A stretch of DNA of 64,000 nucleotides from an uncultured bacterium. GTDB taxonomy: Bacteria; UBP6; UBA1177; CALOFP01. Positions 22,920-48,491 of the stretch are shown here, one piece after another (within the stretch, counting starts at the first letter, position 1; every line of letters starts with the position of its first letter). Under the pieces are notes generated by a model. The model worked only from the letters and a program-made list of their open reading frames with translations, made no database searches and was not told where the DNA came from. The position numbers and the translations under genes are program-made. The DNA lies in NCBI GenBank assembly GCA_942492635.1, contig CALOFP010000003.1, positions 1,137,102-1,201,101 of the forward strand, read 5' to 3'.

Positions 22920-22927
22920 GTGGGAGA

Positions 22928-27432: not shown

Positions 27433-27438
27433 ATCTTT

Positions 27439-28128
27439 ATGCCAAAAATAAAAAACATCGGTTTTCTTTCTACAACCCTCCTACTCTGGGCAGTGATTTT
27501 CATTCCATCCTCACTTTTCGCAGGTGCAACTCAAAGCAGCGATTTCATGAAAGAAAACAAAAACCTCCAGCAGTACATCCACAAGGAACCGCACTCCAAT
27601 ATCTATCTGGGTGCCGGACTTGTTCCCGTCGGGCTCATGAAAAACCGGTTTTTTTTCGGAGCCAGCATCTTTCAGGCCCACTACATAAACAAGTGGGTAG
27701 ACGTAGAGATGCTTAACATCACATTCGGAGCCAGCAGGGCGGAAGAGAGCGAGTACTCCGCGTATCACTTCATATTCCGCGCCAGTCCGAAATACCGGCT
27801 GTTCGACTTCCTGAGCATCGGACCACTCGTCGCGCTTGAGTATGTCAGTTTCCCGGATGTAAGCAAAAAAGAGTATAAAATCCCCTACTTCACTCCACTC
27901 GAACCTTTCTCTTCCCTCGGATACATCTGGGGTGTAATGATCAGTGAACAGTTTCTTTACAAAAAGTACATAATAAAAATAAACCAGTTCTTCTACCAGC
28001 AGAACTACTCCGTAAAAGAGTCCCTTCACGGTTGGAGCTACTGGTTTGAGGACGAGGAACTGCAGAACGACCCCGAACCGATCGAAGCCGGATTCATCAT
28101 CGGACTGGAGTTGTCGTTTCTTTTCTAA
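27439..28128 (+). CDS. Small outer-membrane beta-barrel-like protein, second copy
   Basis: An RBS (GAGGAG) precedes the start. It has a signal peptide, beta-strand periodicity, and ends in GLELSFLF with a terminal Phe. Confidence 0.6.
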   Translation: MPKIKNIGFLSTTLLLWAVIFIPSSLFAGATQSSDFMKENKNLQQYIHKEPHSNIYLGAGLVPVGLMKNRFFFGASIFQAHYINKWVDVEMLNITFGASRAEESEYSAYHFIFRASPKYRLFDFLSIGPLVALEYVSFPDVSKKEYKIPYFTPLEPFSSLGYIWGVMISEQFLYKKYIIKINQFFYQQNYSVKESLHGWSYWFEDEELQNDPEPIEAGFIIGLELSFLF

Positions 28129-30780: not shown

Positions 30781-31134
30781 AACGGCGCGCTTCGCGGCCT
30801 TGTGAACGCCCGGTCAAGCCGGGCTTATGAACGGCTTGCAGGCAAGCCTTGTGAACGCTTCGCTTGTGAACGGCTCGCTTCGCGAGCCTTCAGGACGCCA
30901 CGTTCCACGTGGCAGAGGGAGAAGGGAGTCGGCATTTTCTCAAGTGCAGCCGAGCGTTCACGAGCCGAAGGCGTTCTCAAGCATAGCGCAGCGGAGCGTT
31001 CGCAAGCCGAAGGCGTTCACAAGCTTAGCGCAGCGAAGCATTCACAAGCCGAAGGCGTTCTCAAGCATAGCGCAGCGAAGCGTTCGCAAGCCGAAGGCGT
31101 TCTCAAGCATAGCGCAGCGGAGCGTTCTCTCTCC
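30781..31134. repeat. GC-rich non-coding array: five to six ~25-bp hairpin units followed by ~4.5 copies of a 42-bp tandem repeat in inverse orientation
   Basis: 30781-30905 holds units of the form GAACG-stem-TTC-stem-CTTGT with differing self-complementary stems (GCCCGG/CCGGGC, GGCTTGC/GCAAGCC, GGCTCGC/GCGAGCC, GCCACG/CGTGGC). 30944-31134 holds 42-bp units (30986, 31028, 31070, 31112) containing GCGTTCACAAG, the reverse complement of the left-arm flank CTTGTGAACGC. Confidence 0.8.
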
Positions 31135-31783: not shown

Positions 31784-33250
31784 ATGACACAGGTAAGAAC
31801 GAGGTTCGCACCGAGCCCAACAGGATATATGCATGTGGGAAACCTTCGTACAGCGCTTTACGCCTATCTTCTGGCTAAAAAGGACGGAGGTACTTTCATT
31901 CTCAGAATCGAAGATACGGATCAGGAACGCTACGTTGAAGGTGCCGTAGACATCATCTACAACACTCTGAAAGAGACCGGACTCATTCACGATGAAGGTC
32001 CTGATGTAGGCGGCGATTACGGTCCCTACATCCAGACCGAGCGTATGGGGCTTTACAAGGAGTACGCCATTCAGCTCATCGAAAAGGGTGAAGCCTACTA
32101 CTGCTTCTGTGACAAGGAGAGACTGGACGGGATGAGAAGAGCCTGCGAGCTCCAGAAAACCGCTTTCCGTTACGACGGAAGCTGCAGAAATCTCTCAAAG
32201 GAAGAGGTGGCGAAGAAGCTTGCCGAAGGCGTTCCCTACGTTATCAGGCAGAAAATTCCGACAGAGGGAACGACAACCTTCGACGATGCCGTTTACGGAT
32301 CCATCACAGTTGACAACTCGACTCTAGACGACCAGATCCTCATAAAATCCGACGGTCTTCCCACATACAACTTCGCAAACGTTGTGGATGATCACCTGAT
32401 GGGAATCACTCACATCGTAAGAGGAAGCGAGTACCTCTCATCCACACCTAAGTACAACCTTCTCTACAAGGCTTTCGGCTGGGATATTCCGGTTTACGTT
32501 CACGTTTCACCGGTTATGCGGGACGCTCAGCGCAAGCTCTCAAAACGTGACGGAGACGCCAGCTACCAGGATTTCATCGACAAGGGATTCCTCAGCGAAG
32601 CTGTAATGAACTACATCGCGCTTCTCGGATGGAACCCGGGCGATGAAAGGGAAAAGTTCACAATGGACGAACTTATCCAGGCTTTCAATATCCGCGGAAT
32701 CAGCAAGTCACCGGCCATCTTCGATGCTGTCAAGCTTCAGTGGCTCAACGGCGAGTACATCAGGGAACTTACTTTCGAGGCATTCTTCGAGAAGGCCGAA
32801 CCTTTCATAAAGAAGGGACTCATACGTGACGATCTCGACCCGAAAAAGATCGCGGCACTTCTTCACACAAGAACAGAGAAGTTCTCCGACATTCCCGAGC
32901 AGCTCGATTTCTTCAACGAGCTTCCCGAGTATTCACCGGAACTCTACATCCATAAGAAGATGAAGACGAACTTCGAGAACTCCCTCGAGAGTCTCAAAGT
33001 TATTCTTCCCGCCATCGAAGAGCTCGAGCAGTGGGATAACGATTCACTCTATGCGAGACTTCTCAAACTTGCGGAGGAGACGGAGATCAATAAGAAGAAG
33101 ATTCTCTGGTCGATGCGTGTTGCAGTTTCCGGAAAACAGTTCACTCCGGGAGGCGGAACCGAGATCGCCGCAATCGTAGGAAAGGAAGATACCCTCAACC
33201 GAGTCAGGAAGGGAATCGAACTTTTGGAGAAAACAGTGGCGGAACAGTAA
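31784..33250 (+). CDS. gltX: Glutamate--tRNA ligase
   Basis: It has a HIGH-type motif ([20 protein letters not shown]), the KLSKRDG motif (KMSKS class), and typical class I GluRS length and layout. The RBS is AGGAGGA. Confidence 0.95.
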
Positions 33251-33298: not shown

Positions 33299-33519
33299 CA
33301 TCATGCTGTTCCTTTGAATCTTAAAAAGGTCTATAAAGATAAGACAGCCGAACACCGGTTCTGTCCAAAATTATATACCCTAAGAAATCCGGACATCTTC
33401 GATCAATCTTTTTTAAACACCGAAAAGCTGAATCTTTTTCTTTTTTCCATCTAAAATCAACCTGTTAAAAATCCCAGCAGGCTGAACCTGACTTTTTACA
33501 ACGCATAAAGACCGGAATG

Positions 33520-33535
33520 TTTAGTGCAGTCGAAA
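33520..33535 (+). promoter_or_regulatory. Conserved upstream motif TTTAGTGCAGTCGAAA, copy 1 (77 nt before ATG 33597)
   Basis: The identical 16-mer also occurs at 35677 and 39717, each time exactly 77 nt upstream of the start codon of a paralogous lipoprotein gene. Confidence 0.7.
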
Positions 33536-33596
33536 CAATAAAAGAAAACATCATAATCATACTGATTTCGTATTATTGACAGATATGAGGCAAGCC

Positions 33597-35156
33597 ATGA
33601 AGTGCTTTAATTTTTTTATCGGACTCTTTGCAATCGCAGCGATTATCTCCTGCGGATCGGGGAACGACAATTCCTCAAAGAAGGAGTTGAACGGAACAAC
33701 CGACAGCGACCAGGATTCACAGATCTCCTCAACTGACGACGATCAGGACAAGGAACCGGACGACGATTCCAAACAGGATACAGATCCGCAAAACCCTGAG
33801 AAGGATGATTCAGATAAAATTGATGAGAAAAACGACAGCGAAACTATCCCCGAGGACCTCTGTGAGGATGTCACCTGCAACGATCATGGAGAGTGCGTAT
33901 TGGAAAAAGGCCTTCCAATCTGCGACTGCGAAGAGGGTTATGAAAACGATTTCAACAATCCGACCGGTTGCGTTATCAAAAGAGACTCCTCATTGATAAT
34001 CTCCGAAATAGTACAAAATGAGATATCGGCAAAAAAGGCCGGATCCTACATTGAAATCTACAACGCTACAGATGCGGCAATCGACCTTTCCGGCTACAGA
34101 ATAGCAACCAACGGGGCATCAGAGTCGCTTGACCAGGAAGGCGTTTTGAGCAAAAAGACAATAAACCCCGGCGAAGCGGTGGCAATTTCCCGAAATATTC
34201 TGCAGCTTATGGAGCCGACCGATTACTTCGCCAACGTATTCGGATTCTCGTCCGTAGGCCACTCAATTCTGATCACTCACCTGACTGAAAACAGGGCAAT
34301 AATCCTTCTTAATCCGGATGATGAGGTCATCGATATCTACGGTAAAATCTGCGACAACGTCTGCGATTTCTCATGGGACTACCAGAATAAAATCGTAAGA
34401 AGAAAATTCGGGGTTAAATCAGGATCAAAAACATGGAACAAAGATGAGTGGGATGCAATCGATTATGAAGATGTAGTAAAAGAGGCAAACCCTGAAAAGC
34501 ACTTTGTTTCCGACCCATGCAGTTCAAAAACCTGCGATAACGAATGGAACAGCTGCAACACTCTTACCGGTGAATGCGACATTCTGAAAGAGGGAATGTG
34601 CTCAAAGTCCGAAGATTGCAAGGCAGAGACCCCTAAATGCAATACAGAAACACACACCTGCGAAGCAATCGATGTAGCCGACTCCGAAAACCTTATCAGA
34701 AACGGTAGCTTTGAAGAGTGGGAGGGCAACTATCCGGCCCACTGGAACGGCAATAAGACATACATGGGCTCCGCCGAGGCTCTTCTCTTTACTGATTCTC
34801 CCTATGACGGAAGCAACGCCATCCAGATCGTAAACGCAACCAACAACGTCAGAAGATTCACTACTGCAGAAATTCCAGCGCTTGAAGCAGGCACATACAA
34901 CCTATCCTACTATGTTAAGGGCAACGGAAAATTCACCGTCGGCTACTACAGTCAGAGCGGATCCGTTAACGGAGGAAGCAGCGATTTCACCGCGATCGAT
35001 TCCAGAGGGTGGACAAAAAAGAGCTTCACATTCACACTCGATAGCCCAACCACAAACGTTCAGTTTTCCATCTGGACCAGGGAGACAAACCTCATCGAGT
35101 ATCACGACTCAAACAAGCATCTTGTTTTCGACAAATTTTCCTGTGTGAAGATGTAA
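33597..35156 (+). CDS. Modular surface lipoprotein, family member 1 (519 aa): acidic linker, one EGF-like unit, LTD-like domain, Cys-knot, C-terminal jelly-roll-like domain
   Basis: The signal and lipobox read MKCFNFFIGLFAIAAIISCG. The EGF-like unit is CEDVTCNDHGECV...CDCEEGY...C, and the LTD-like segment is LIISEIVQNE...YIEIYNATDAAIDLSGYRI. The C-terminal domain has NGSFEEWEGNYPAHWNG and ends in FDKFSCVKM. Confidence 0.8.
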   Translation: MKCFNFFIGLFAIAAIISCGSGNDNSSKKELNGTTDSDQDSQISSTDDDQDKEPDDDSKQDTDPQNPEKDDSDKIDEKNDSETIPEDLCEDVTCNDHGECVLEKGLPICDCEEGYENDFNNPTGCVIKRDSSLIISEIVQNEISAKKAGSYIEIYNATDAAIDLSGYRIATNGASESLDQEGVLSKKTINPGEAVAISRNILQLMEPTDYFANVFGFSSVGHSILITHLTENRAIILLNPDDEVIDIYGKICDNVCDFSWDYQNKIVRRKFGVKSGSKTWNKDEWDAIDYEDVVKEANPEKHFVSDPCSSKTCDNEWNSCNTLTGECDILKEGMCSKSEDCKAETPKCNTETHTCEAIDVADSENLIRNGSFEEWEGNYPAHWNGNKTYMGSAEALLFTDSPYDGSNAIQIVNATNNVRRFTTAEIPALEAGTYNLSYYVKGNGKFTVGYYSQSGSVNGGSSDFTAIDSRGWTKKSFTFTLDSPTTNVQFSIWTRETNLIEYHDSNKHLVFDKFSCVKM

Positions 35157-35180
35157 CGATTCGCAGCTTTTCAACACATT

Positions 35181-35340
35181 CATGTAAAAAGCCCATTTCC
35201 GGTTTCAATTCAACCTCAAAAAATTAATCTGCTCCAGAAAGCCGTTATTTTTGTCATGATATTTTTAATTTCTCAACTTCAGAGGCTGGAATGATCAAGA
35301 TATTTGTTTCGTAATAAATTTAGTCGCTGATTTGTGTTGA
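35181..35340. repeat. Dispersed intergenic repeat, copy A (short variant)
   Basis: It aligns by eye with 45330-45592 and 57952-58215. Shared blocks are CCTCAAAAAATTAATCTGCTCC.GAAAGCCGTTATTT and GGCTGGAATGATCAAGATATTTGTTTCGTAATAAATT, and this copy lacks the central part. Confidence 0.65.
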
Positions 35341-35676
35341 AAAAAGTTTTTTCAGGATTCCAGAAGATCAACAGTCATCGAAGTTCTTAAAGATCCATAT
35401 ATTTGACAAACCCGGCGTGCTGCCATCACTGCAAGACCGGAAATAGTGCTTGAATTTCCAGGCACCGAAAGCTCATCTTACCTCTCTTTCGCTACCACGA
35501 ACCCCCACAAAAAACTCTCGAATTTTAAGGACCTAAATTTTATGGACTTTTCCTCAGCAAACAATAGCAGGTACAACCGTGCCCAGACTAAAAACTTTTT
35601 ACCCTGTTATTTCATTATCTTGAACGTGTATTATTTTTATCCGCACCAACATTACAACCCATTTTTGTTCAAAAAA

Positions 35677-35692
35677 TTTAGTGCAGTCGAAA
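35677..35692 (+). promoter_or_regulatory. Conserved upstream motif TTTAGTGCAGTCGAAA, copy 2 (77 nt before ATG 35754)
   Basis: This is an exact 16-mer repeat. The downstream leader also shares GTGTGT.AA.CCATTAAC.AT.G.GGAGCAAAC with copy 3. Confidence 0.7.
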
Positions 35693-35753
35693 TACCTTTA
35701 CACCAAAGATAAGATCCGTGTGTGTTAAACCATTAACCATTGCGGAGCAAACC

Positions 35754-38700
35754 ATGAAGTGTTTTAGGTACTTAATTGCAGTCTTTGCAATTTTCTCCAT
35801 CCTGTCCTGCGGAGATTCGAACTCCGGGAGCAAAAAGACCGATTCGGATGAATTTGCCGACACGGACAACACAGAAGAGACAGAGAAGAAAGACGATTCC
35901 AAAAAGGTTGAAAATGACGATGAGGCAAAGCCGTCCGATAAAGAGGAAAAACCCGACGACAGCTCGAAAAACGACGATGATCATTCCGGAAACTCCGATC
36001 TCGACAACGACGGGGGAAGCAATCCCCTCTCGGACTCTGATCAGAATAACTCAGAGCAGGATTCTGATGAAACTCAGGATGAGGAGAGCGATGCCGATTC
36101 TTCCAACCCCTGCATCAATCAAAAATGCGGGGGGAACGGAGAATGCTCCGTCGACAGTTCAGGCAGTGCCGTTTGTTCATGCAACGACGATTTTATAAAC
36201 GATAAAACCGACGCGATGAACTGCATAGCCGACCCGTGCAAGGATATGACCTGCGGAAACAACGGAACATGTTCCGTCAGTTCTTCTAACAATGCGGTAT
36301 GCACCTGTAACGACGGTTTCATGAAAGATACAAACAATCACCTGAACTGCGTCGCAGACCCCTGCGACAATATCGACTGCGGTGGACACGGGACATGCGA
36401 GGTAATTACAAACACAAAGGGGTGGTGCACCTGCAACAACGGTTACCTGACAGACTCAAACAACACCTTGAACTGTATTGAAGGATACGATTTCCCCAAC
36501 GGTGATTTTGAGAACTGGGATAAAACGACAAGCGGTGTCGCGAAACCGACCGACTGGAGAATCGGAAGTTCCACAAAATCCTACAAAATAACAGATGCAA
36601 ACGCCGACAACTACCTTCGCCTGAACTACCCTTTCAACGCATCTTACACAGAGGATATGTTGACCAGCGCGGCTATCGACTGTGGAAACAGCATACCTGC
36701 AAGAATCACTTTCAGAATGAAGGCGGAGGGAAAGATTGCCGTAAAACTAAATATCGCAAACAGGGATCTTTTCTATAAACTCTCACCTGAAACAAATCTC
36801 TTTTCGTACCTGGGAGAGACGGAAGACGATTCAAACTACATAAAAACCGTGGATTCCTCACAGAGCTGGGCAACTTTCACAGTTAAACTTGGAAGTGAGC
36901 TTGACGGTTTGTGGACAGAGGGGAACAGCATGGAAATCACCCTCGCAAGCGGAAAATCCCAGGAATTCATCGGTGAAATCGACAGTTTCAACATAGAGAT
37001 GGAGAAGCCGGAATGCTACGACAACAGCGAATGTACAGATACTGAAAAACCGATGTGTGATCTTGATAAGGCATCCTCGACCTTCATGACCTGCATTCCG
37101 GAACAGACATGCTCAGGTGTATCCATAAAAGACATAAGAAAAGGAACAGGAATTAAAACAGGAGATGAAGTTACAGTATGTGTTGCCCATGTAACCAGCG
37201 ACTACATTAAAAACTTCAGCGGAAAAAATATCGGTGTCTACATTGCGGATCCGGACGGTGCCGAATACAGCGGCATAAAAATCTATGAGCCGACAGGCCT
37301 CGAAGGATTCGGTCGCGGCGATTTTATTAAAATTACCGGTACTTACGAAGAAAACCTCAACAATTCCCAGTTATCCGGAGTAAAAATCGTAAAACTGCCG
37401 CTTGAAAAAGTCGATCCGAAAGCAACACCGGCACTATCTACCGAAGTTACCGATGAAAAGTACGAAGGAATGCTCGTAAAAGTTGAGAATTTAGCGGTTA
37501 CAGCCGTAAGCCGCTACACTCCGGACAAGGAAGGAAAGATCACTGTAACCGACAACCTTACAATCTCCACATACTTCCATATTTTCGAAAGACCGCAGAT
37601 CGGTACCGCCTACAAGTCGATTACCGGCATCCTGAATAACTACCAAAGCGGCAGTTTCGAGATCAGGCCGAGAGACGCCGCTGACATGGTACCGGAATCC
37701 GGCAACAACGATCCATGCACCGATATAGATTGTTCCGGGCACGGAAAATGCAGCGTTGTATCAAACACAGCTACGTGTCAGTGCGCGGACGGTTACGTAA
37801 ACAGTACCGATAATCCTCTGAACTGCGTTTTGGCAGGAACAAACCCATGCGAGAACGTAACATGCGGAGATCATGGAACATGTTCGGTTACAAACAGTGA
37901 TCCCGTCTGCGAATGCGACAACGGATTCGTAATTGACGAAAACGATCCCCTCAACTGCATGGAAAAGGCTCCCGAACCGATAAAATCGCTGATAATATCC
38001 GAAGTTGTCCAGCACCGTGAAAGTGTGACAAGCATCGGAACATACATTGAAATATTCAATCCGACAGGGAAAACAGTTGACCTCACAGGATACACAATTG
38101 AAACCGACGGCACCGTTGACAACTTGGACGACAGCTCCATTCTCCCCTATTCCACTCTCGCACCGGACAAAGCCGTAGCCATATCCAAAAGGCCTTTCCA
38201 GGACGGAACACTGGATTACTTTAAGAACGTATTCGGATATGCCTCTGAAGGTCACGGAGACATTATCCCACACCTTGTGAACAACAGAGCCGTTATCCTG
38301 AAAAACTCCAAAGGCGACATCGTGGACATCTTCGGAGAAACTGGAACCGACGGCACAGGAAAAGCCTGGGACTACCAGGGAAAAGCGGCAAGAAGAAAAT
38401 ACGGAGTCGTTCTTGGAAAAAGCGTATGGGATCCTGCAGAATGGGAGATAATTGCATACTCGGATGTAACAAAAGAAACCAATCCCGGGAAACATTTCAT
38501 AGAAGACCCCTGCATTTCATATAGTTGCGGTAATGACTGGAGCACATGCAATCCACTTTCCGGCAACTGCGATATCGTTAAGGATGGAATGTGCGCGACA
38601 TCTGCAGACTGCTCCGGAGAAACTCCAAAATGCAATCCTGAAACCCACGTCTGCGAAGCCTATTCAGGCCTGGAGGAAGAAAACGTTATTACAAACGGGA

Positions 38701-39188
38701 GCTTCGAGAACTGGACCTACGGCAAGCCCGGAGACTATCCTGACAGCTGGGGCGGCAGTAATACTTCGCTGAACCCCACATCATCCTTTGCCACAATGGC
38801 AGTTCCATTCACCGTGTCTCCCATGGACGGAGAGAAGGCCATTCAGATAAACAACAGCAGTAGAACCCCCAAAACCCTGACAACCGCAGAGATAGACTCC
38901 CTTGAGGCCGGTACATACAAATTCACCTGTTATGTAAAGGGTAACGGTAACATAAAAACAGGTCTTTTCTACAAAGAGAACTCATCATCCGATCAATACA
39001 TCTCGAAAAATGGTGAATACACGAAACTGAATACAGCTGAATGGACTGAAAAAAGCTACACATTCACTCTTGAAAAAGATGTAACCAATGTCCAGTTCTC
39101 AATATGGGCATATGACACAAACTTTGTCGGCACCGCCATTGTCGATTACCACCTGATCATAGACATGGTTTCATGTGTTAAACAGTAA
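35754..39188 (+). CDS. Modular surface lipoprotein, family member 2 (1144 aa): 3+2 EGF-like units, jelly-roll-like domain, OB-like segment, LTD-like domain, Cys-knot, C-terminal jelly-roll-like domain
   Basis: The signal and lipobox read MKCFRYLIAVFAIFSILSCG, after GGAG 6 nt upstream. The OB-like segment is GDEVTVCVAHVTSD...GVYIADPDG..YSGIKIY...GDFIKITGTYEENLNNSQL. The LTD-like segment is LIISEVVQHRE...YIEIFNPTGKTVDLTGYTI. The protein ends in VSCVKQ. Confidence 0.8.
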   Translation: MKCFRYLIAVFAIFSILSCGDSNSGSKKTDSDEFADTDNTEETEKKDDSKKVENDDEAKPSDKEEKPDDSSKNDDDHSGNSDLDNDGGSNPLSDSDQNNSEQDSDETQDEESDADSSNPCINQKCGGNGECSVDSSGSAVCSCNDDFINDKTDAMNCIADPCKDMTCGNNGTCSVSSSNNAVCTCNDGFMKDTNNHLNCVADPCDNIDCGGHGTCEVITNTKGWCTCNNGYLTDSNNTLNCIEGYDFPNGDFENWDKTTSGVAKPTDWRIGSSTKSYKITDANADNYLRLNYPFNASYTEDMLTSAAIDCGNSIPARITFRMKAEGKIAVKLNIANRDLFYKLSPETNLFSYLGETEDDSNYIKTVDSSQSWATFTVKLGSELDGLWTEGNSMEITLASGKSQEFIGEIDSFNIEMEKPECYDNSECTDTEKPMCDLDKASSTFMTCIPEQTCSGVSIKDIRKGTGIKTGDEVTVCVAHVTSDYIKNFSGKNIGVYIADPDGAEYSGIKIYEPTGLEGFGRGDFIKITGTYEENLNNSQLSGVKIVKLPLEKVDPKATPALSTEVTDEKYEGMLVKVENLAVTAVSRYTPDKEGKITVTDNLTISTYFHIFERPQIGTAYKSITGILNNYQSGSFEIRPRDAADMVPESGNNDPCTDIDCSGHGKCSVVSNTATCQCADGYVNSTDNPLNCVLAGTNPCENVTCGDHGTCSVTNSDPVCECDNGFVIDENDPLNCMEKAPEPIKSLIISEVVQHRESVTSIGTYIEIFNPTGKTVDLTGYTIETDGTVDNLDDSSILPYSTLAPDKAVAISKRPFQDGTLDYFKNVFGYASEGHGDIIPHLVNNRAVILKNSKGDIVDIFGETGTDGTGKAWDYQGKAARRKYGVVLGKSVWDPAEWEIIAYSDVTKETNPGKHFIEDPCISYSCGNDWSTCNPLSGNCDIVKDGMCATSADCSGETPKCNPETHVCEAYSGLEEENVITNGSFENWTYGKPGDYPDSWGGSNTSLNPTSSFATMAVPFTVSPMDGEKAIQINNSSRTPKTLTTAEIDSLEAGTYKFTCYVKGNGNIKTGLFYKENSSSDQYISKNGEYTKLNTAEWTEKSYTFTLEKDVTNVQFSIWAYDTNFVGTAIVDYHLIIDMVSCVKQ

Positions 39189-39716
39189 ACGCTCCTATTC
39201 TGCGAACAGCAACTGATCACGTCCAAAACTCGGCTCTCCTTTCCAAAATCATTGTTTACAAAACCAGAGCAATCACCCATCAAACAACAATTATAAATAA
39301 TAAAACAAACAAAGACGGACAGTCATTCCGATCCAAATTTGCAAGTCTTGGTGATAATCGGGAAACTTTCTCAAAGTACAAAAGACAAGCCTGATACTAC
39401 TATGAATTCAAAATGGTTTTTCCATCACCATCGGTTCAAGATCAAAAATCGAATCAACTAATCGTTTTAAATAACCGGTGTCCGAAAAACAAAAAGAGAC
39501 CCATTTAATTCACTCGCTACAATGCCCATTTCTCCTTGAAAACACTCATCATTTGCTTAACTGCCATTACCCCAACAAATCAGGACCATTTTCGAAGCAA
39601 CTCACCGCAGGTACGAGCACACATAGACCTTAAAGATATAACCAAATAATTTCGTCTGGTTACCAAATGTCCTAATTAATTCGCACCCGACAACCACAAC
39701 TAAACAGTTCACATTA

Positions 39717-39732
39717 TTTAGTGCAGTCGAAA
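39717..39732 (+). promoter_or_regulatory. Conserved upstream motif TTTAGTGCAGTCGAAA, copy 3 (77 nt before ATG 39794)
   Basis: This is an exact 16-mer repeat with identical spacing to the start codon. Confidence 0.7.
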
Positions 39733-39793
39733 TACTTTTAACTCATCATTAACATTTCTGTGTGTAACACCATTAACTATCGTGGAGCAAACG

Positions 39794-42700
39794 ATGAAAT
39801 GTTTTAATTTTCTAATTGCAGTCATTGCAATTTTCTCCATCATCGCGTGTGGAGAAGGCAGCTCAAAAAAGGAAGAAGTTTCCGACAGTATTGTCTCGGA
39901 CTCCGACATTGAAGACAAATCAACGCAAAATGAAAAACCGGAACCAGAAGAGAAACCGGATGAAGATAAAAAACAGGACGTAGATCCTGCAAACGATGAA
40001 GACGAAACAAAGCAGGATAACGATTCTATAATTGACGGAGACAACATTTCTGATGATGAAGACAAAGAAGCGGTTCCTGATTATGACGAAAAGAGTGACG
40101 AAGATATCGTAAAACCCGATCCATGCAAAGATGTTACCTGTGGAAACAACGGAACATGTTCCGTGAAAGATGATAGTACCACAGTCTGTACCTGCAACGC
40201 AGGTTTTATTAACGATAAGACAGATGCGATGAACTGTATCGCTGATCCGTGTAAGAATCAGAATTGTGGTGGTAACGGTATTTGTTCCGTAAATGATGAC
40301 AACACTGCTGTATGTGCATGCAACACAGACTTCATTAATGACAAGACAGATACCATGAACTGCATTGCTGATCCGTGTAAGAATCAGAATTGTGGTGGGA
40401 ACGGAACCTGCTCCGTAGATGATGGAAACACTGCTGTCTGTACATGCAACACTTACTTTATTAATGATAAGACAGACGCAATGAACTGTATCGCTGATCC
40501 GTGTAAGAATCAAATTTGCGGTGGTAACGGTATTTGTTCTGTAAATGATGACAACACTGCTGTCTGTACATGCAACACTGACTTTATTAATGATAAGACT
40601 GACACAATGAACTGTATCGCTGACCCGTGTAAGGATCAGAATTGCGGTGGTAACGGTATTTGTTCTGTAAATGATGACAACACTGCTGTCTGTACATGCA
40701 ACACTGACTTTATTAATGATAAGACTGACGCAATGAACTGTATCGCCGATCCGTGTAAGAATCAGAATTGCGGTGGTAACGGTATTTGTTCAGTAAATGA
40801 TGACAACACTGCTGTCTGTACATGCAACACTGACTTTATTAATGATAAGACTGACGCAATGAACTGTATCGCTGACCCGTGTAAGAATCAGAATTGTGGT
40901 AACAATGGTACCTGTTCAGTGAAAGATGACAACACTGCAGTCTGCGGTTGCAACACTAACTTCATTAATGATAAGACTGACGCAATGAACTGTATCGCTG
41001 ACCCGTGTAAGGATCAGAATTGCGGTGGAAACGGTACCTGTTCAGTCAAAGATGACAACACTGCAGTCTGCGGTTGCAACACAGATTTCATTAACGACAA
41101 AACTAATGCTATGAACTGCATTCCTGACCCGTGTAAGGATCAGAATTGCGGTGGAAACGGCACCTGTTCTGTAGATGATTCCAATGCGGCTGTTTGCGGC
41201 TGCAACACAGGTTTCATACACGACAAAACTAATACGATGAACTGCATTGCCGATCCTTGTAAGAATCAGAATTGCGGAAACAACGGTACCTGTTCAGTGA
41301 AAGATGACAACACTGCAGTCTGCGGTTGCAACACAGATTTCATTAACGACAAAACTAATGCTATGAACTGCATTCCTGACCCGTGTAAGGATCAGAATTG
41401 CGGTGGAAACGGCACCTGTTCTGTAGATGATTCCAACACTGCAGTCTGCGGTTGCAACACTGACTTTATTAATGATAAGACTGACGCAATGAACTGTATC
41501 GCTGACCCGTGTAAGGATCAGATATGTGGTGGCAACGGAACTTGTTCTGTAGATAGTACGAATAACGCATCCTGCGGATGTAACGAAGGGTTCAAAAACG
41601 ATCCTGAAGATGCAATGAACTGTATCACTGACACTTGTCATAACCAAACATGCGGTGGAAACGGAACCTGCTCAATGAATGCAGAAGGTTATGCCATCTG
41701 CACATGCAGCCCGAATTTTATCAACGATAAAACAAATCCCCTCAACTGTATCGCCGATCCATGTGAAAATCAGACATGCGGAGGAAACGGAAGTTGTACT
41801 GTCGATAATTCCAACACTCCTGTCTGCGGTTGCAACCCAGATTACATCAATGACAAGACAAATGCCATGAACTGTATCGCAGATCCGTGTAAGAATCAGA
41901 ATTGTGGAAACAACGGTACCTGTTCTGTTGATGATTCCAATACCGCCGTTTGTTCCTGTAACACAGACTTCATTAATGACAAGACAGATCCGATGAACTG
42001 TATCGCAGATCCATGTAAGGATCAGAATTGCGGCGGAAACGGAAGTTGTAATGTAGATGATTCCAACAGTACCGTCTGCGGCTGTAACCTCAATTTCATA
42101 AAAGATAAAAATGACGACATGAACTGTATTGCAGATCCATGTCTTGATGAAAACTGCGGTGGAAACGGATTGTGCAGCGTAAACGATTCCAACCTTCCGG
42201 AGTGTGCATGCAACACTGGTTCAATTATTGACAAAACAGATCCTATGAACTGCATTGCAGATCCGTGTACGGGGCAGAATTGCGGTGGAAACGGAAGTTG
42301 TTCCGTAAATGATTCAAACACTGCTGTTTGCAGCTGTAATACCGACTTTATAAACGACAAGACAAATACTATGAACTGTATTGCGGATCCGTGTAAGGAT
42401 CAGACCTGCGGAGACAATGGAAATTGTACTGTAAATGATTCAAACACTGCTGTCTGCAATTGTAACACGGACTTCATAAACGATAAAACAAATGCTATGA
42501 ACTGTATTGCAGATCCGTGCAAGGATCAAACTTGCGGTAACAACGGAACTTGCAATATAGATGATTCCAACACTCCTGTATGCGACTGTAACACAGACTT
42601 CATAAACGATAAGACAAACGCAATGAACTGTATTGCGGATCCATGTAAAGATGAGAATTGCGGTGGAAACGGAAGTTGCTCTGTAAATGATTCGAATAAT

Positions 42701-45163
42701 GCTGTCTGCACATGCAACATTGACTTCATAAAAGACAAAACAGATGCCATGAACTGTATCGCAGATCCGTGTAAAGATGAGAATTGCAGTGGAAAAGGAA
42801 GCTGTACGGTAGATGATTCCAACAGCGCAGTCTGCGGCTGTATCCCAGGTTTCAAGAACGATCCTGCAGATGCAATGAGCTGTATCGCAGATCCTTGTCA
42901 CAATGTGGACTGCGGCGGAAACGGAACCTGTTCTGACAACGCCGGAACTGCTGAATGTGAATGCAACAACGGCTATATCAACGAAACAGGGAATGCTCTC
43001 AACTGCGTGGAGGGATACGCTTTCTTCAACCCCGACTTTGACCGGTGGGACAATGAAACACCAGGATCCGCAAAACCGACGGACTGGACACTCGACAGCA
43101 AAGCCGTATCCGAGAAAAGGACTGAGAATTCAAACAACTACCTCGTATTAAGTCATGCGTACAATCTCGTCGAAAACGTTATTTTCGCTACTAAACCCGT
43201 AGCTTGCGCTGATCACAAACCATCCGTAATTACTTTCAGAATGAATGCGGCAGGCAAAATCCAGCTCAAACTCAATGTCAACGGAACAGATCTTTTCTAT
43301 AAGCTTTCATCCGGATCAAATATCTTTTCGTACACCGGAACAGCTGAAGTCAGCGAAAACTATGTTACTTTCGGCAACGCCCTCAGCATCGGCAACGGCC
43401 AGGAATGGGAACAGTTCACCATCAAACTCGGGTCGGAGCTTGACGGATTGTGGCAGGAAGGTTCAACAATGACGCTCTCTCTTCTCAGAGGTCAGGATAA
43501 GACCTTTGTCGGATACATAGACGAATTCAGAATAGAGATGGAAAAACCTGAATGTCTCGAGAACAGCGATTGTACTGATGCGGAAAATCCGATCTGCGAC
43601 CTTGACAAAACCAGTCCTTCATTCTTGACCTGTCAGCCCAAACCGAGTTGTGAAGGCGTTTCAATCAAACAGATCAATCAGAATGACGGAGTAGCAATTG
43701 GCGATACCGTTACCATTTGTGAAGCTGTAATGATATCGGACAGGTTGGGCTATTCAAAAAACAGCGCATTCGTTACCGATCCCGACGGAGGAGATTTCGG
43801 CGGCATATTCCTTTATGGAAATGCTCTTAAAACATCAGAAATTAAAACCGGCGATATCGTTATGATTAAAGGCTCATACGCCGAGAACAACAACAACTCC
43901 CAGATTAATGTAACAGAAGTTGTAATACTTGAAGGCAATAAAACGTTTACGCCGAAGTCTGTTTCAAAAAGTGATATTCTCGACGGAAACGGCGAAAAAT
44001 ACGAAGGTATGCTGATCTCTATCGACGATGCGGTCATAGTTGATAACGCCAAGTACACAGATCTTGCAAACGGATACGTAACAATATCTAACAGTCCCGG
44101 AAAAACTCTTAACATTTCAAACAAGTGTTCCGTCATGGCAAAACCTGAAAAGAATGATTATTTCTCGACTATTACAGGAATTCTATTTCAACAGGACGAC
44201 ACATGGAATATCGCCCCGAGAAATGCAGATGAGATGGTAAAGGGTACCAATCCGTGCGACGCTCATACATGCATGGAAAACGCTTCGTGCTTTGTCGAAA
44301 ACCACACCTCAAAGTGTGCCTGCAATGCAGGTTACGAGTTTGATGAAAATGATGCATCCACATGTGTTCTCAAAGATCTCTGCGAAGGTGTTACCTGCGG
44401 AGATCACGGAACATGTTCTTTCGAGAACCTTGTTGTGAAATGTACATGTGAGGCGGATTACAAGAATGATGAAACAGATCCGCTCAACTGTGTAGAGGAC
44501 CTTTGTGCAAACGTAACTTGCGTAAACAGCTGGAATGAATGCAATCCGGCTTCCGGAGCATGCGACATTATCAAAGAAGGAATGTGCGAATCATCGGATA
44601 ATTGTCCAAGCCATGCACCGGAATGCAATGCGGAAACACATACATGCGAAATTCCTTCAGGAGGAAATTTCAACGTTATCCCCAACGGAAGTTTTGAAAA
44701 CTGGACCATTTCTACCCCCGGTGAATACCCTGAAGATTGGGGCGGAAGTAAAACAGCACTTCTCAACTGCAGTATTCTACCCATAAAAGAAAATGTCCAG
44801 GACGGCAACAATGTACTTCAATTTCAGAACACTTCGGGTTCAACAAGAAAAATCACTACAAAAGAAATCCCGGTCCTTGCCGCTGGAGAATATGAGATCA
44901 CTTATTTTGTCAAAGGCAATGGAGAGGAGACTGTCGGACTCTACTACAAGGAAACGCCGGAATCTTTAACGTTCAAGTCAAGCTATCGATCTTATGAACA
45001 AATAGATCAGGATACATGGCAAAAAAAGAGCTACACGTTCACACTGGAAAGAGATGTTTTTAATATTCAATTTTCAATCTGGGGCAAATATACCAACTAC
45101 ACACTCGACAATACATTCCAAACACATCTGCTTTTTGACAATTTTTCATGTATTAAAAAGTAA
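39794..45163 (+). CDS. Modular surface lipoprotein, family member 3 (1789 aa): 23 tandem EGF-like units, jelly-roll-like domain, OB-like segment, 2 EGF-like units, Cys-knot, C-terminal jelly-roll-like domain (no LTD)
   Basis: The signal and lipobox read MKCFNFLIAVIAIFSIIACG. There are 23 units of the type DPCKxQNCGGNGxCSVxDxNTAVCxCNTDFINDKTxAMNCIA. The remaining modules are collinear with member 2, and the protein ends in FSCIKK. Confidence 0.85.
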   Translation: MKCFNFLIAVIAIFSIIACGEGSSKKEEVSDSIVSDSDIEDKSTQNEKPEPEEKPDEDKKQDVDPANDEDETKQDNDSIIDGDNISDDEDKEAVPDYDEKSDEDIVKPDPCKDVTCGNNGTCSVKDDSTTVCTCNAGFINDKTDAMNCIADPCKNQNCGGNGICSVNDDNTAVCACNTDFINDKTDTMNCIADPCKNQNCGGNGTCSVDDGNTAVCTCNTYFINDKTDAMNCIADPCKNQICGGNGICSVNDDNTAVCTCNTDFINDKTDTMNCIADPCKDQNCGGNGICSVNDDNTAVCTCNTDFINDKTDAMNCIADPCKNQNCGGNGICSVNDDNTAVCTCNTDFINDKTDAMNCIADPCKNQNCGNNGTCSVKDDNTAVCGCNTNFINDKTDAMNCIADPCKDQNCGGNGTCSVKDDNTAVCGCNTDFINDKTNAMNCIPDPCKDQNCGGNGTCSVDDSNAAVCGCNTGFIHDKTNTMNCIADPCKNQNCGNNGTCSVKDDNTAVCGCNTDFINDKTNAMNCIPDPCKDQNCGGNGTCSVDDSNTAVCGCNTDFINDKTDAMNCIADPCKDQICGGNGTCSVDSTNNASCGCNEGFKNDPEDAMNCITDTCHNQTCGGNGTCSMNAEGYAICTCSPNFINDKTNPLNCIADPCENQTCGGNGSCTVDNSNTPVCGCNPDYINDKTNAMNCIADPCKNQNCGNNGTCSVDDSNTAVCSCNTDFINDKTDPMNCIADPCKDQNCGGNGSCNVDDSNSTVCGCNLNFIKDKNDDMNCIADPCLDENCGGNGLCSVNDSNLPECACNTGSIIDKTDPMNCIADPCTGQNCGGNGSCSVNDSNTAVCSCNTDFINDKTNTMNCIADPCKDQTCGDNGNCTVNDSNTAVCNCNTDFINDKTNAMNCIADPCKDQTCGNNGTCNIDDSNTPVCDCNTDFINDKTNAMNCIADPCKDENCGGNGSCSVNDSNNAVCTCNIDFIKDKTDAMNCIADPCKDENCSGKGSCTVDDSNSAVCGCIPGFKNDPADAMSCIADPCHNVDCGGNGTCSDNAGTAECECNNGYINETGNALNCVEGYAFFNPDFDRWDNETPGSAKPTDWTLDSKAVSEKRTENSNNYLVLSHAYNLVENVIFATKPVACADHKPSVITFRMNAAGKIQLKLNVNGTDLFYKLSSGSNIFSYTGTAEVSENYVTFGNALSIGNGQEWEQFTIKLGSELDGLWQEGSTMTLSLLRGQDKTFVGYIDEFRIEMEKPECLENSDCTDAENPICDLDKTSPSFLTCQPKPSCEGVSIKQINQNDGVAIGDTVTICEAVMISDRLGYSKNSAFVTDPDGGDFGGIFLYGNALKTSEIKTGDIVMIKGSYAENNNNSQINVTEVVILEGNKTFTPKSVSKSDILDGNGEKYEGMLISIDDAVIVDNAKYTDLANGYVTISNSPGKTLNISNKCSVMAKPEKNDYFSTITGILFQQDDTWNIAPRNADEMVKGTNPCDAHTCMENASCFVENHTSKCACNAGYEFDENDASTCVLKDLCEGVTCGDHGTCSFENLVVKCTCEADYKNDETDPLNCVEDLCANVTCVNSWNECNPASGACDIIKEGMCESSDNCPSHAPECNAETHTCEIPSGGNFNVIPNGSFENWTISTPGEYPEDWGGSKTALLNCSILPIKENVQDGNNVLQFQNTSGSTRKITTKEIPVLAAGEYEITYFVKGNGEETVGLYYKETPESLTFKSSYRSYEQIDQDTWQKKSYTFTLERDVFNIQFSIWGKYTNYTLDNTFQTHLLFDNFSCIKK
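40118..43015 (+). repeat. 23 x 126-bp in-frame tandem repeat (42-aa, 6-Cys EGF-like unit)
   Basis: I counted the units from the translation. Several adjacent units are nearly identical at DNA level, and 41051-41184 is repeated exactly at 41303-41436 (offset 252 bp, or 2 units). Confidence 0.9.
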
Positions 45164-45299
45164 TCAATTCTGACATAGCAATTTCAAAATAATTTTGAAT
45201 CTTCTTCAGAACTTGGGTTTGGAGGCCGAAAAATTAATCAGGTAATTTATCACTTTGCCATTTCTAGTTATCATACGATCAAATTTCCCTCTCCTGTTT

Positions 45300-45322
45300 C
45301 CTCCCCTTCTCGGAAGGGGAGG
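45300..45322 (+). terminator. Stem-loop (10-bp stem, 3-nt loop), possible terminator; also the left boundary of repeat copy B
   Basis: The sequence is CCTCCCCTTC-TCG-GAAGGGGAGG followed by ATTTTA. It lies 137 nt after the stop of 39794..45163. Confidence 0.5.
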
Positions 45323-45329
45323 ATTTTAA

Positions 45330-45693: not shown

Positions 45694-47463
45694 CTACTCG
45701 CACTCTTCTTCAGATTCCTTCAGGTGAATGTTTCCGAAAAAACTTACGATTTCATCCATTTCAAAGGAGTCTGCGAAGAATTTTATTCTTGAATCCTTTT
45801 CGGGGTCGGTCACCATTTCAACACACTCCCGTATCCTTTTTCCCGTCTGGTTGTCGACAAATATTTTCACGATACCGAAACCTTTATCGGAAACTGATAT
45901 TTCATTTTCTCCGTTTTCCACTGTCTGAATGAGTTCTTCAACTGGAATCGGAAAAACTACTTTTCTTATAAGCCTTTCCGCTCCGTTTGTTTCAGCCAGA
46001 TAAGATTCATCCCCAATGTTTGCAAGGATAACTACACTTTCTGTTCCATCCACCTCTTTGAGAAAAATCTCCTCTATCATCTGTCCGGAATAGGTGGCTG
46101 CGTACCCGTCAACTCCTTTCAGGTCAAAGTACGCTGTGGGAAGAAGCATGTTCTGAATTGTTCCGGTAAATTCATCCAGGTAACCGGATATCCTGAAGGT
46201 TACAAAGTGCTCGCTGTCATTTTCAAAAAAGCTCTCTTCCGCTTCCCGGTGTTCCGGATAATCTATTTTATCTTTGTAGACTTCGTAAATTCTGTAGTTG
46301 AGGTTACTGAATTCACCGTAATTGACGGATGCGTTCTGGTTCACCATTACCGCGATTTTTTCATCGGGAAAATATGTAACCCAGGAGTTGAACACAAGCA
46401 TGTTGCCGCCGTGTCCCCATGAAAGAATCTGCTTGATTACGGATTTCATAACCCCGAGACCGTAATCCGCCGCTTCTGCCTCTCCGGATGGAAAATCAAC
46501 CATCATTTCAACGGATTCTTCCTCAAGAATTTCTCCGTTGAAAAGTGCATAGACAAATCTCGCCACATCCCCTGAAGATGCAAAGATATCTCCGGATGCC
46601 ATTTTCTGGGCATAGACGTAATCTTCTATGGGGTAGCTGTAAAACTCCCCTTCGTAAAAAACGTGACCCGTTACATCATCCGGTCTCTCTTCCAGCGCGA
46701 AATAGGTCTGTTTCAGCTCAAGAGGGTCCAGAATTATCTCCCGAATAAGATCTCTGTAGCTCTTATGGGTGACTTTCTCACAGATTGCCGCAAGAATTGC
46801 GTAGTGCATGTTTGAATAGCTGAATCTCGTACCCGGATTAGTGACGTAGGGAGCCTTTATCGCGAGAAATGTTTCCGCAACTTCCTGCACCGAGCTGAAC
46901 ACGGTCTTATTGTTCTTCATTTCGGGGACGAGCTCCTCTCTTGGCATTGCGGCTGTGTGATTGAGGAGCATTTTCAAAGTTACTTCATCCGCCTTAAGCG
47001 CATCGGGATACCACCGGGACATTTTGTCCTCTAGAGAAATCTGACCCTCTTCAATCAGCTTCATAACGACGGTGGCCGTATACAATTTTGTAATACTTGC
47101 GACGTTTATGGTGTTCTCGGCTTTAAGAAGCGTACTGCTTTCAAGATCCCTGTATCCAGCAACTGCATTTATCGAATTTTTACCGTCGTATACTGAAACG
47201 GATATTCCGGCTCCCATGCTGAAGTATAGTTGTTCATTTGTAAGATTTTTGATGGCCTTCTCAATTCTGGAATCCGTCTGGGCCGGAGTGCTTTCCCCAT
47301 CGTCAAGTTCACCGTCCGGCTCCTCCGAATCATCGGAAATGATCGCCTGGAGAGAATCGGTGTCGGGAATGTTGTTTCCTTTTTCCTCAGAACTGTTCTC
47401 AGTCCCATCAGAACATGAAATAAAAACCAGTAAAATCAAGGCAACAAAGGCAAACCTCTTCAT
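45694..47463 (-). CDS. Serine hydrolase of the beta-lactamase/PBP4-like (class C-type) fold, a lipoprotein with an extra C-terminal domain
   Basis: The ATG at 47463 follows GGAGG, and the lipobox is LVFISCS. Motifs present: SxxK (ASITKLY), YxN (FSYSNMHY) and a later WGHGGN. About 200 additional C-terminal residues are of unknown fold. Confidence 0.75.
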   Translation of the reverse strand: MKRFAFVALILLVFISCSDGTENSSEEKGNNIPDTDSLQAIISDDSEEPDGELDDGESTPAQTDSRIEKAIKNLTNEQLYFSMGAGISVSVYDGKNSINAVAGYRDLESSTLLKAENTINVASITKLYTATVVMKLIEEGQISLEDKMSRWYPDALKADEVTLKMLLNHTAAMPREELVPEMKNNKTVFSSVQEVAETFLAIKAPYVTNPGTRFSYSNMHYAILAAICEKVTHKSYRDLIREIILDPLELKQTYFALEERPDDVTGHVFYEGEFYSYPIEDYVYAQKMASGDIFASSGDVARFVYALFNGEILEEESVEMMVDFPSGEAEAADYGLGVMKSVIKQILSWGHGGNMLVFNSWVTYFPDEKIAVMVNQNASVNYGEFSNLNYRIYEVYKDKIDYPEHREAEESFFENDSEHFVTFRISGYLDEFTGTIQNMLLPTAYFDLKGVDGYAATYSGQMIEEIFLKEVDGTESVVILANIGDESYLAETNGAERLIRKVVFPIPVEELIQTVENGENEISVSDKGFGIVKIFVDNQTGKRIRECVEMVTDPEKDSRIKFFADSFEMDEIVSFFGNIHLKESEEECE

Positions 47464-47762
47464 TAAAACCTCCAAAACAAAAGATTAATGTTAAACATTG
47501 CAGTCTATATTTGTGGATATCTAATAAAGATAAAGCAAGTGCTGTGCTAAACTTTTTTTAGAAGTGTTTTTAAAGCGTTAACTTACACTTCGACACTGTT
47601 TTACAACCGACTGACACTTTGTGGACGTTGTGGACACGATGGACTTCGGGGACGCTACCGACTGTTTGTATTTTATGGTTGAAGGAGCGCGAGGGAGAGA
47701 ATTTTTGACTACGACTCTGACAATCCTTAGAATGGCTCGGTAACATTTCATTGGGGGAAATA

Positions 47763-48407: not shown

Positions 48408-48413
48408 TTGACA
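48408..48413 (+). promoter_or_regulatory. TTGACA -35-like hexamer conserved 84 nt upstream of the start codon
   Basis: TTTTACTTGACAA occurs here and at 52829-52841. Both copies lie 84 nt before their ATG, and the leaders also share TTTTTTGGAGGT.ATTAATGATTC. No clear -10 box was identified. Confidence 0.4.
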
Positions 48414-48491
48414 ATTAACCTTCAAAACACAATTCTTTACTGCTATTTAATTAAAAACATCCCTTTTTTAACATTTTTTTGGAGGTTATTA

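Follow-up and report, generated by a model that had tools for sequence, protein, structure and literature searches.

Candidate polymer-capture lipoproteins of modular design and without a detectable catalytic domain, encoded in tandem by an uncultured bacterium

Three consecutive genes for predicted lipoproteins, here called G1, G2 and G3, lie on the forward strand of a 64-kb stretch of contig CALOFP010000003.1, from an uncultured bacterium of the GTDB lineage UBP6. All coordinates given below are positions in this stretch, referred to as the window. A first-pass annotation, made from the letters of the DNA, had described genes of 519, 1144 and 1789 codons whose products have an MKCF signal, a lipobox, an acidic linker and a C-terminal domain in common and carry, between these ends, six-Cys units of EGF-like spacing, a lamin tail domain (LTD), an OB-like segment and Cys-rich linkers. 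The listing of open reading frames (ORFs) and their translation agree with the three lengths and with the MKCF starts, and these sequence observations are confirmed in every detail and lie far beyond chance. A ribosome-binding site, GAGG or GGAG, stands ahead of each of the three start codons. In pairwise BLAST comparisons G1 corresponds to G2 without residues ~126-698, while G3 corresponds to G2 with the first EGF block enlarged and the LTD removed, the mutual amino acid identity being 43-47%. At this level of identity the genes appear to be old tandem paralogues. Consequently, the description of the family as expanding holds for the EGF array of G3 and not for the three genes, and no member other than G1-G3 is found in the window. 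The proteins are strongly acidic, with net charges of -46 (G1), -91 (G2) and -162 (G3).

The N-terminal signals end in IISC (G1), ILSC (G2) and IIAC (G3), the Cys being residue 19 in each case. Assignment to lipoproteins processed by signal peptidase II is made at pattern level, and acylation and final location are likewise predicted from the pattern. Past the lipobox, a linker of 67-96 residues is made up of Asp and Glu to 37-42% and is nearly devoid of hydrophobic residues. From the lipobox and this long tether we infer exposure at the cell surface.

The six-Cys units come next. Counting by regular expression returns the distribution described before, namely 1, 3+2 and 23+2 copies (31 in total), nearly all with the spacing C-x4-C-x5-C-x9-C-x-C-x13-C and conforming to the EGF-like pattern C-x4-C-x5-C-x8/9-C-x-C-x13-C. 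Their EGF-like nature is borne out by the Pfam family Pvs28 EGF, which scores 104.6 bits in G3 and 37.2 bits in G2, and by EGF_Teneurin and EGF_2, both above their cut-offs in G2; the single unit of G1 falls below threshold (18.5 against a cut-off of 21.5). Modelled with AlphaFold2 (AF2), the unit of G1 folds into two β-hairpins with a confidence score (pLDDT) of 77-83. A calcium-binding type of EGF was ruled out, as the D-x-D/N-E-C signature is absent from the unit sequences. At the DNA level, the array of G3 is a 126-bp tandem repeat of 21.8 copies (40193-42935), in which units 4-6 share 95-97% identity, units 2-11 mostly 73-96% and the distal units 12-22 mostly 55-83%; the 23-unit array is still amplifying. 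As regards the remark that 25 such units are uncommon in bacteria, the count of G3 is indeed the highest met here, but multi-EGF bacterial lipoproteins are not unique, given that 7-13 EGF-like units are present in 9 other matches of our protein searches (P0003, P0004, P0006-P0013).

The LTD was correctly placed in the first two members only: it exceeds the 34.3-bit cut-off of PF00932 in G1 and G2, and no such domain is detected in G3. In NCBIfam, the LTD region of G1 aligns to positions 23-194 of ExeM. The OB-like segment, in turn, occurs in G2 and G3 only. It aligns to positions 3-134 of the 546 positions of the ExeM_NucH_DNase model (NF033681), leaving the nuclease part unmatched, and scores 25.0 bits (G2) and 25.3 bits (G3; E 2e-5) with DUF5689 (PF18942), slightly under the gathering score of 28.6. 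A relative, P0023, passes this cut-off with 38.6 bits over the full profile (positions 4-217). By homology, the segment is therefore assigned to the superfamily of DUF5689 and the ExeM-NucH N-terminus.

A complementary view is offered by an AF2 model of residues 243-652 of G2, an all-β structure with a pLDDT of 70.8, built on a 4-sequence alignment; this alignment stayed shallow, since a homologue search with the segment returned one protein only. In Foldseek comparisons the first half of the model resembles the sandwiches of CBM4-2, CBM61, CBM22, CBM29, CBM6 and MAM. The second half resembles the tandem-OB HIN domains of AIM2, IFI16 and p202, which bind double-stranded DNA (3rn5, 2oq0 and 4jbm; E 1e-4 to 7e-4, TM-scores of 0.40-0.49 on the target). 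The two halves are joined by a short linker, PEC..C..C..C..C, all five Cys of which are invariant in 4 family members. Moreover, hhalign aligns the middle sandwich with the C-terminal domain (probability 90%, E 1.5e-6), which shows it to be a distant paralogue of the latter.

The C-terminal domain, beginning NGSFE.W and ending SC[VI]K as described, spans ~160 amino acids in all three proteins, with WNG in place of WGG in G1; the three C-termini align at 43-49% identity. It belongs to CBM_4_9 (PF02018, gathering score 25.9 bits) with scores above this threshold in G1 and G2, while the counterpart in G3 lies below it and is 43-46% identical to the other two. A second AF2 model, of residues 85-519 of G1, is poor (pLDDT 51) and confident in the EGF unit alone; its weak local matches to CBM4-2, CBM6 and CBM16, and to the Ig domains of lamin B1 and lamin A/C, are consistent with Pfam and carry little weight. 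The toxins ranking at the top of its fold matches were dismissed as noise, with root-mean-square deviations of 25-30 Å.

In all three proteins the C-terminal domain is preceded by an 8-Cys knot, in which the motif C.N.W..CN...G.CDI.K.GMC...C...P.CN.ETH.C noted earlier is recognised. A similar knot (C..W..C...G.C.LK.G.C...DC...P.C...H.C) stands directly before CBM-like sandwiches in unrelated metagenome-assembled genomes (MAGs), specifically in L003 (4204-6840), P0019 and L025 (8001-12986). It is an unnamed conserved mini-domain, for which Pfam and NCBIfam have no model.

None of these modules is an enzyme. Searches of Pfam, NCBIfam and the PDB, by sequence and by fold and even at lax thresholds, found no nuclease, glycosidase or other catalytic domain in G1-G3, in line with the statement of the first-pass annotation that no catalytic signature is present. 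In particular, the match to NF033681 reaches 31 bits against a cut-off of 300 and covers the N-terminal part only, Exo_endo_phos is absent from the Pfam matches, and the PDB sequence searches gave only weak EGF matches and a non-significant match to RPA2. In G2, the stretches left unassigned after module annotation do not exceed about 40 residues, so that there would be no room for an enzyme. The features of the locus are collected in Table 1.

Table 1. Genes, modules and upstream elements of the lipoprotein family in the window
Feature	Position	Strand	Remarks
16-mer before G1	33520-33535	+	TTTAGTGCAGTCGAAA; putative promoter or operator element
G1, lipoprotein gene	33597-35156	+	519 aa (amino acids)
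G1 signal and lipobox	33597-33653	+	
G1 acidic tether	33654-33860	+	
G1 single EGF-like unit	33861-33971	+	
G1 LTD	33987-34343	+	Pfam E 4.3e-12, 46.8 bits
G1 8-Cys knot	34518-34661	+	
G1 CBM_4_9	from 34689	+	Pfam E 5.1e-10, 40.3 bits
16-mer before G2	35677-35692	+	TTTAGTGCAGTCGAAA
G2, lipoprotein gene	35754-39188	+	1144 aa; every module type present
G2 three EGF-like units	36111-36476	+	aa 120-241; regex; Pvs28 EGF, EGF_Teneurin and EGF_2 above cut-offs
G2 middle β-sandwich	36480-37007	+	aa 243-418; CBM4_9-like jelly roll; AF2 model and hhalign
G2 5-Cys linker	37008-37112	+	aa 419-453; PEC..C..C..C..C
G2 tandem-OB module	37119-37700	+	aa 456-649; DUF5689 / ExeM-NucH N-terminal type; ExeM_NucH_DNase positions 3-130
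G2 two EGF-like units	37716-37958	+	aa 655-735; regex count
G2 LTD	37977-38336	+	aa 742-861; Pfam E 3.8e-12, 47.0 bits
G2 8-Cys knot	38511-38654	+	aa 920-967
G2 C-terminal CBM_4_9	38682-39185	+	NGSFE.W subtype; Pfam E 3.2e-7, 31.2 bits
16-mer before G3	39717-39732	+	TTTAGTGCAGTCGAAA
G3, lipoprotein gene	39794-45163	+	1789 aa; without LTD
G3 array of 23 EGF-like units	40124-43006	+	aa 111-1071; 126-bp tandem repeat
G3 middle β-sandwich	43010-43543	+	aa 1073-1250
G3 5-Cys linker	43547-43651	+	aa 1252-1286
G3 tandem-OB module	43652-44254	+	aa 1287-1487; DUF5689-like
G3 two EGF-like units	44255-44491	+	aa 1488-1566; regex count
G3 8-Cys knot	44504-44647	+	aa 1571-1618
G3 C-terminal CBM_4_9-type domain	44672-45160	+	Pfam 18.6 bits, below cut-off
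Terminator-like element downstream of G3	45299-45323	+	strong hairpin, then T run

Hints to a function come from the company that these modules keep in other proteins. The alignment of the C-terminal domain was scanned against one genome per GTDB species, yielding 21 loci of 23-36% identity, the encoded proteins of 14 of which were inspected. Two in Vibrio (L016, L019) join CBM_4_9 to Endonuclease I, and two in Alkalicoccus (L008, L011) are EEP nucleases with the same CBM_4_9 subtype at the C-terminus. In three more the domain is fused to, or adjacent to, OB or DUF5689 modules: a Bacteroidales protein has an OB nucleic-acid-binding domain (L015), a flavobacterial one a weak DUF5689 and a tail of the type IX secretion system (T9SS; L004), and in a Bacillota MAG the CBM_4_9 ORF abuts a 1710-amino-acid protein of OB and DUF5689 modules (L002). 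Three proteins of Flavobacteriia and relatives carry CBM_4_9 and a T9SS tail only (L006, L009, L014), and the flanks of the flavobacterial CBM_4_9-T9SS genes hold housekeeping genes and are uninformative. Cys-rich proteins of various MAGs are also among them (L003, L010, L018), L003 holding the knot and sandwich cassette twice. A glycosidase is fused to this subtype in none of the 14 relatives inspected nor in G1-G3, and the label of carbohydrate binding may be misleading for CBM_4_9 domains of the NGSFE.W subtype.

The OB module has many homologues. A profile of the β-sandwich and OB segments of four family members, searched against 1.84 billion representative proteins, matched 2740 with E < 1e-3, of which 889 had E < 1e-10. 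Nearly all of these matches cover the OB half alone, which is often present as 2-7 copies in tandem; matches over the full length are limited to P0022, G2 itself, P0148 and P0149. Of the 148 best matches, 125 were scanned with Pfam, which found DUF5689 in 29 (best E 2.5e-55), a T9SS tail (Por_Secre_tail) in 18, an OB nucleic-acid-binding domain (tRNA_anti-codon) in 17, LTD in 13 and PLD, EEP, SNase or Metallophos in about 11-12. A large class among these homologues (P0174-P0294) consists of lipoproteins of ~410-520 amino acids with two tandem DUF5689-like OB modules, mostly enzyme-free and mostly with net charges of -40 to -100. Enzyme-free lipoproteins with OB modules thus appear to be common though unstudied. 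Taken together, all three kinds of non-EGF module in G1-G3 are accessories of secreted nucleases in other proteins, and this partnership, drawn from a small sample, is the strongest new argument for a role related to DNA.

Relatives of the family itself are very few among ~15 billion proteins, and these extend the module shuffling evident among G1-G3, as the first-pass annotation had proposed. P0023, of which P0002 is a truncated copy, contains 2 EGF units, the β-sandwich, the OB module, 2 further EGF units and 2 LTDs, with no C-terminal sandwich, and P0149, which has the MKCF start, shows the same order up to a single LTD. P0022 is reduced to tether, β-sandwich and OB, while P0148 follows the order of G2 with a Cadherin-like domain replacing EGF, its downstream neighbour being a lipoprotein with knot and CBM_4_9. 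Apart from the window, the full combination of EGF rod, LTD, β-sandwich/DUF5689 cassette and knot/CBM_4_9 was met only on a single other NCBI contig and in two more sequencing runs. The lineage was encountered only on two NCBI contigs and in the Logan runs ERR9669565, ERR9670067 and SRR16297625, for which a literature search found no mention, two scans of JGI metagenomes (by protein profile and by DNA leader pattern) giving zero matches. In other words, the particular combination is rare and uncharacterised, while all module types were already known. In a locus of another organism (L025, 5004-12986, from SRR16297625), a sensor-regulator of the Reg_prop/Y_Y_Y/AraC-HTH type lies directly upstream of two tandem family lipoproteins, on the same strand, and one of the two carries a Cadherin-like domain where the EGF units would be. 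Sensors of this type detect glycans in Bacteroides.

A further trait common to the family is found upstream of the genes. The 16-mer TTTAGTGCAGTCGAAA has exactly 3 exact matches in the window, one per gene, and does not occur in any of 100 shuffles of the window. Its core TTAGTnnAGTCG is invariant before five family genes (G1-G3, P0002 and P0149), whose contigs derive from two or more sequencing runs, and lies 50-53 nt upstream of GGAG. Comparison of the five leaders (window 33500-33602, 35657-35759 and 39697-39799; L001 87-189; L024 1860-1962) also shows, in four of them, a block ATTAACTATCGTGGAG(C/G)AAAC(G/C)ATGAA after the core and, by eye, GT(T/C)(C/T) about 16 nt before TCGA in four, an arrangement that possibly resembles, loosely, a promoter for an alternative sigma factor. 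An RNA element in the 5′ leader was considered and rejected (RNAalifold -0.9 kcal/mol, no covariation, no Rfam match). As no conserved RNA fold is predicted, a promoter or operator is the likelier explanation. A scan for σ70 promoters was uninformative, with 18 sites against 22.5 expected. Lying at a fixed distance from the start codon, the shared element TTAGTnnAGTCGAAA would co-regulate G1-G3.

Several known systems offer points of comparison. The closest in module content is the family of ExeM, NucH and Xds (NF033680, NF033681), secreted and envelope-associated like the proteins predicted here. ExeM consists of LTD, a YhcR-like double OB and EEP, its OB region being essential and its LTD contributing to activity in vitro (PMC6085458); together with the NCBIfam matches, this substantiates the description, in the first-pass annotation, of LTD and OB as typical N-terminal accessories of such nucleases. 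G1-G3 share the LTD and double OB with this family but have no EEP nuclease domain, scoring 31-35 bits against cut-offs of 300 and 1300. G2 holds both accessory modules with the OB preceding the LTD, whereas G1 has the LTD only and G3 the OB only; the predicted anchor is an N-terminal lipid instead of a GlyGly-CTERM, and G1-G3 have gained EGF arrays, Cys knots and sandwiches of CBM type. The Endonuclease I variants of Vibrio and the EEP proteins of Alkalicoccus described above, in turn, share the NGSFE.W CBM_4_9 at 29-36% identity and differ in having a nuclease domain and neither EGF, LTD nor Cys knot.

Non-catalytic envelope proteins with DUF5689, as proposed for G2 and G3, are already on record. 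DdbD is encoded in the ddbABCDEF DNA-utilisation locus of Bacteroides thetaiotaomicron, where it is the proposed substrate-binding partner of the outer-membrane TonB-dependent transporter DdbC, and its model was likened to the HIN domain of p202 (4JBM) (bioRxiv 10.1101/2025.03.18.642099), a resemblance that it shares with our model of G2. The DUF5689 protein RA0C_RS04920 of Riemerella anatipestifer is required for natural transformation (PMC8459023). Nevertheless, there are differences. The ddbD gene adjoins that of the transporter, to which the protein is predicted to dock, while G2 and G3 have no adjacent transporter or nuclease gene; RA0C_RS04920 couples DUF5689 with a second, uncharacterised domain, DUF5017 (annotated as choice-of-anchor J), G2 and G3 couple it with the β-sandwich. 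Moreover, G2 and G3 are 2-4 times the length of a two-module DUF5689 protein and have the module set between EGF units. A different likeness is shown by lipoproteins of uncultured bacteria (P0006, P0008-P0013 and P0015, the latter named 'lamin tail domain-containing protein [Myxococcales bacterium]'), which combine a lipoprotein signal with 7-12 EGF-like units and, except for P0010, an LTD. These uncharacterised proteins share EGF and LTD only (7-20% query coverage), no sandwich-OB cassette or knot and CBM_4_9 being seen in them.

On this evidence, we tentatively favour, at somewhat less than an even chance, that G1-G3 are non-catalytic polymer-capture proteins of the cell envelope, with DNA as the preferred candidate ligand. 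The earlier interpretation as surface-tethered binders stood in all parts that can be checked in the sequence (no enzyme, EGF units, origin of LTD and OB, shuffling), while binding, ligand and surface exposure remain predictions. According to this model, G1-G3 would stand on the cell envelope and hold a polymer without cleaving it, most likely extracellular DNA and possibly a matrix glycan as well. Specifically, a disordered acidic tether of 67-96 residues would be followed by an EGF rod of 1, 3+2 or 23+2 units and by β-rich binding modules, so that rod and tether would set the distance of the heads from the membrane. With ~2.5-3 nm per EGF unit, our own estimate from eukaryotic EGF arrays, three reaches would result, from roughly 3 to over 60 nm. 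The link to DNA is drawn from the DUF5689 homology, the HIN-like fold and the nuclease and OB partners of the C-terminal subtype.

A number of points weigh against this proposal. G1 has no OB module, and two modules are labelled 'carbohydrate binding' in Pfam. Strongly acidic proteins are unusual as DNA binders, and the OB modules are themselves acidic, with net charges of -5 in G2 and -10 in G3 (-5 to -10 across the family) and an average of -19 per module among 387 modules of wider homologues. Simple electrostatic binding of DNA is disfavoured by these charges, and divalent cations or local basic patches could mediate it instead. About 90% of the sampled OB-module homologues are without a nuclease, the nuclease link being that of a minority. 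The structural support consists of one medium-confidence model from 4 sequences, the second model having a pLDDT of 51. Finally, no nuclease, TonB-dependent transporter or competence gene adjoins G1-G3 among the window genes scanned, and in L025 the predicted sensor stands directly upstream of two family genes. A bolder version of the proposal, namely that G1-G3 form a class of nuclease-free receptors for extracellular DNA, in which LTD, a DUF5689 tandem OB and a DNA-targeting 'CBM_4_9' are mounted on graded, still-evolving EGF rods under a dedicated promoter or operator motif, appears doubtful as a whole.

Part of the same evidence would suit SusE/F-like surface proteins that bind glycans only: polysaccharide of a host, a prey or the biofilm matrix would be held by the two CBM4_9-like sandwiches, perhaps together with the OB module, and DNA would be no ligand. 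CBM_4_9 passes its Pfam threshold in G1 and G2, the modelled fold of the middle module resembles those of five CBM families, the acidity of proteins and OB modules is in keeping with such a function, most OB-module homologues have no nuclease, and the regulator beside the relatives in L025 is of the glycan-detecting type. On the other hand, a glycoside hydrolase or lyase is present in 0 of the 14 C-terminal relatives, half of which are joined to, or neighbours of, nucleases or nucleic-acid OB modules; homology links the OB module with DUF5689 and the N-terminus of ExeM/NucH, and its model is HIN-like; and, among the window genes scanned, there is no carbohydrate-active enzyme (CAZyme) or SusC/D-like gene near G1-G3, whereas SusE/F are encoded in a SusC/SusD polysaccharide-utilisation locus. 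An exclusive glycan ligand is judged unlikely.

A role as adhesins of eukaryote-like extracellular-matrix design, attaching to substratum, host tissue or prey by means of a Cys-rich EGF stalk, seems less probable still. A comparable protein is CglD of Myxococcus xanthus, an integrin-like lipoprotein exposed at the surface, whose Cys-rich stalk is formed by EGF-like repeats. This architecture, the abundance in the window of giant adhesin-type proteins (He_PIG, cadherin, TSP3, PKD) and the presence there of a VWA/ExbB/ExbD/TPR cluster, and the Cadherin-like domain in place of EGF in one relative speak for adhesion. CglD, however, has a VWA/MIDAS head, COMP-like Ca-binding repeats and a role in gliding adhesion, while neither a VWA/MIDAS domain nor an integrin-like head nor the signature of Ca-binding EGF is present in G1-G3, and outside the EGF units their modules belong with nucleases and proteins of DNA uptake, not with known adhesins; adhesion and polymer capture are, in any case, not mutually exclusive. 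Very improbable, lastly, is a cryptic enzyme in a β-sandwich or Cys-rich segment, or a docking subunit of a split ExeM-like enzyme whose nuclease is encoded separately. Low-ranking fold matches do include the β-jelly-roll of GH12 and other sandwich-containing enzymes, and all ExeM/NucH accessory modules are there with just the EEP domain missing. The top fold matches, however, are non-catalytic CBMs and HIN domains, the lax searches described above found no catalytic family, and no nuclease gene is present among the window genes scanned.

G1-G3 are flanked by gltX, a β-lactamase-family lipoprotein gene and genes for PKD giants. The neighbourhood is rich in giant extracellular proteins: a single protein of 2864 amino acids with He_PIG, Big_9, cadherin-like and TSP3 repeats is encoded at 5741-14335, and two adjacent paralogues of ~1400 amino acids with PKD, proprotein-convertase P-domain and Sde0182_C repeats at 48408-52700 and 52918-57126. 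The β-lactamase-family protein (45694-47475, - strand) likewise combines a lipoprotein signal with a tether that is acidic and of low complexity, and such tethers may be a general trait of the lipoproteins of the source organism. A cluster at 14589-28128 (+ strand) comprises ExbB, one confirmed ExbD beside an unassigned ORF of 168 amino acids, a weak VWA protein, two TPR proteins and several products without a Pfam match. The cluster might encode a Bat-like system, or else a motor or transporter of the envelope, and it indicates a diderm organism, ExbB/ExbD being typical of diderm bacteria. The GltX protein (31784-33250) has its best relatives, at ~71% identity, among MAG proteins of Clostridia and Oscillospiraceae, which conflicts with the diderm features of the window and would point to horizontal transfer or to mislabelled MAGs. 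Between rtcB (- strand) and a ybaK-like gene (+ strand), at 30946-31127, a 42-bp tandem repeat is present in 4.3 copies with a 90% match. From 58000 to 64000 the G+C content falls to 35-39%, and the region contains an IS200-like Y1 transposase (60472-60942), an ankyrin-repeat protein (61150-62130) and an RHS/YD-shell protein (62195-63943), all on the - strand; a mobile or toxin island may be present here. In L001, too, an RHS gene is located close to the family gene.

If G1-G3 do capture polymers as favoured here, the accessory modules of ExeM/NucH nucleases would act alone as a binding device. To our knowledge, the roles of bacterial LTD and DUF5689 domains are largely unknown, and both would gain a testable function. 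In addition, a CBM_4_9 subtype that travels with nucleases, and is maybe mis-named, would be flagged, and 1, 5 and 25 EGF units would provide a natural series for relating stalk length to capture. The profile search reveals, with its 2740 representatives, a large body of uncharacterised OB-module proteins, mostly enzyme-free, very acidic and in about one third of cases equipped with a lipoprotein signal, of which DdbD appears to be the first studied example. Should the ligand prove an ordinary glycan, G1-G3 would simply be unusual surface glycan-binding proteins of an uncultured lineage. If, instead, they are receptors for DNA, the cell would be able to trap it at more than one distance from the surface, as a nutrient, for transformation or for building a matrix.

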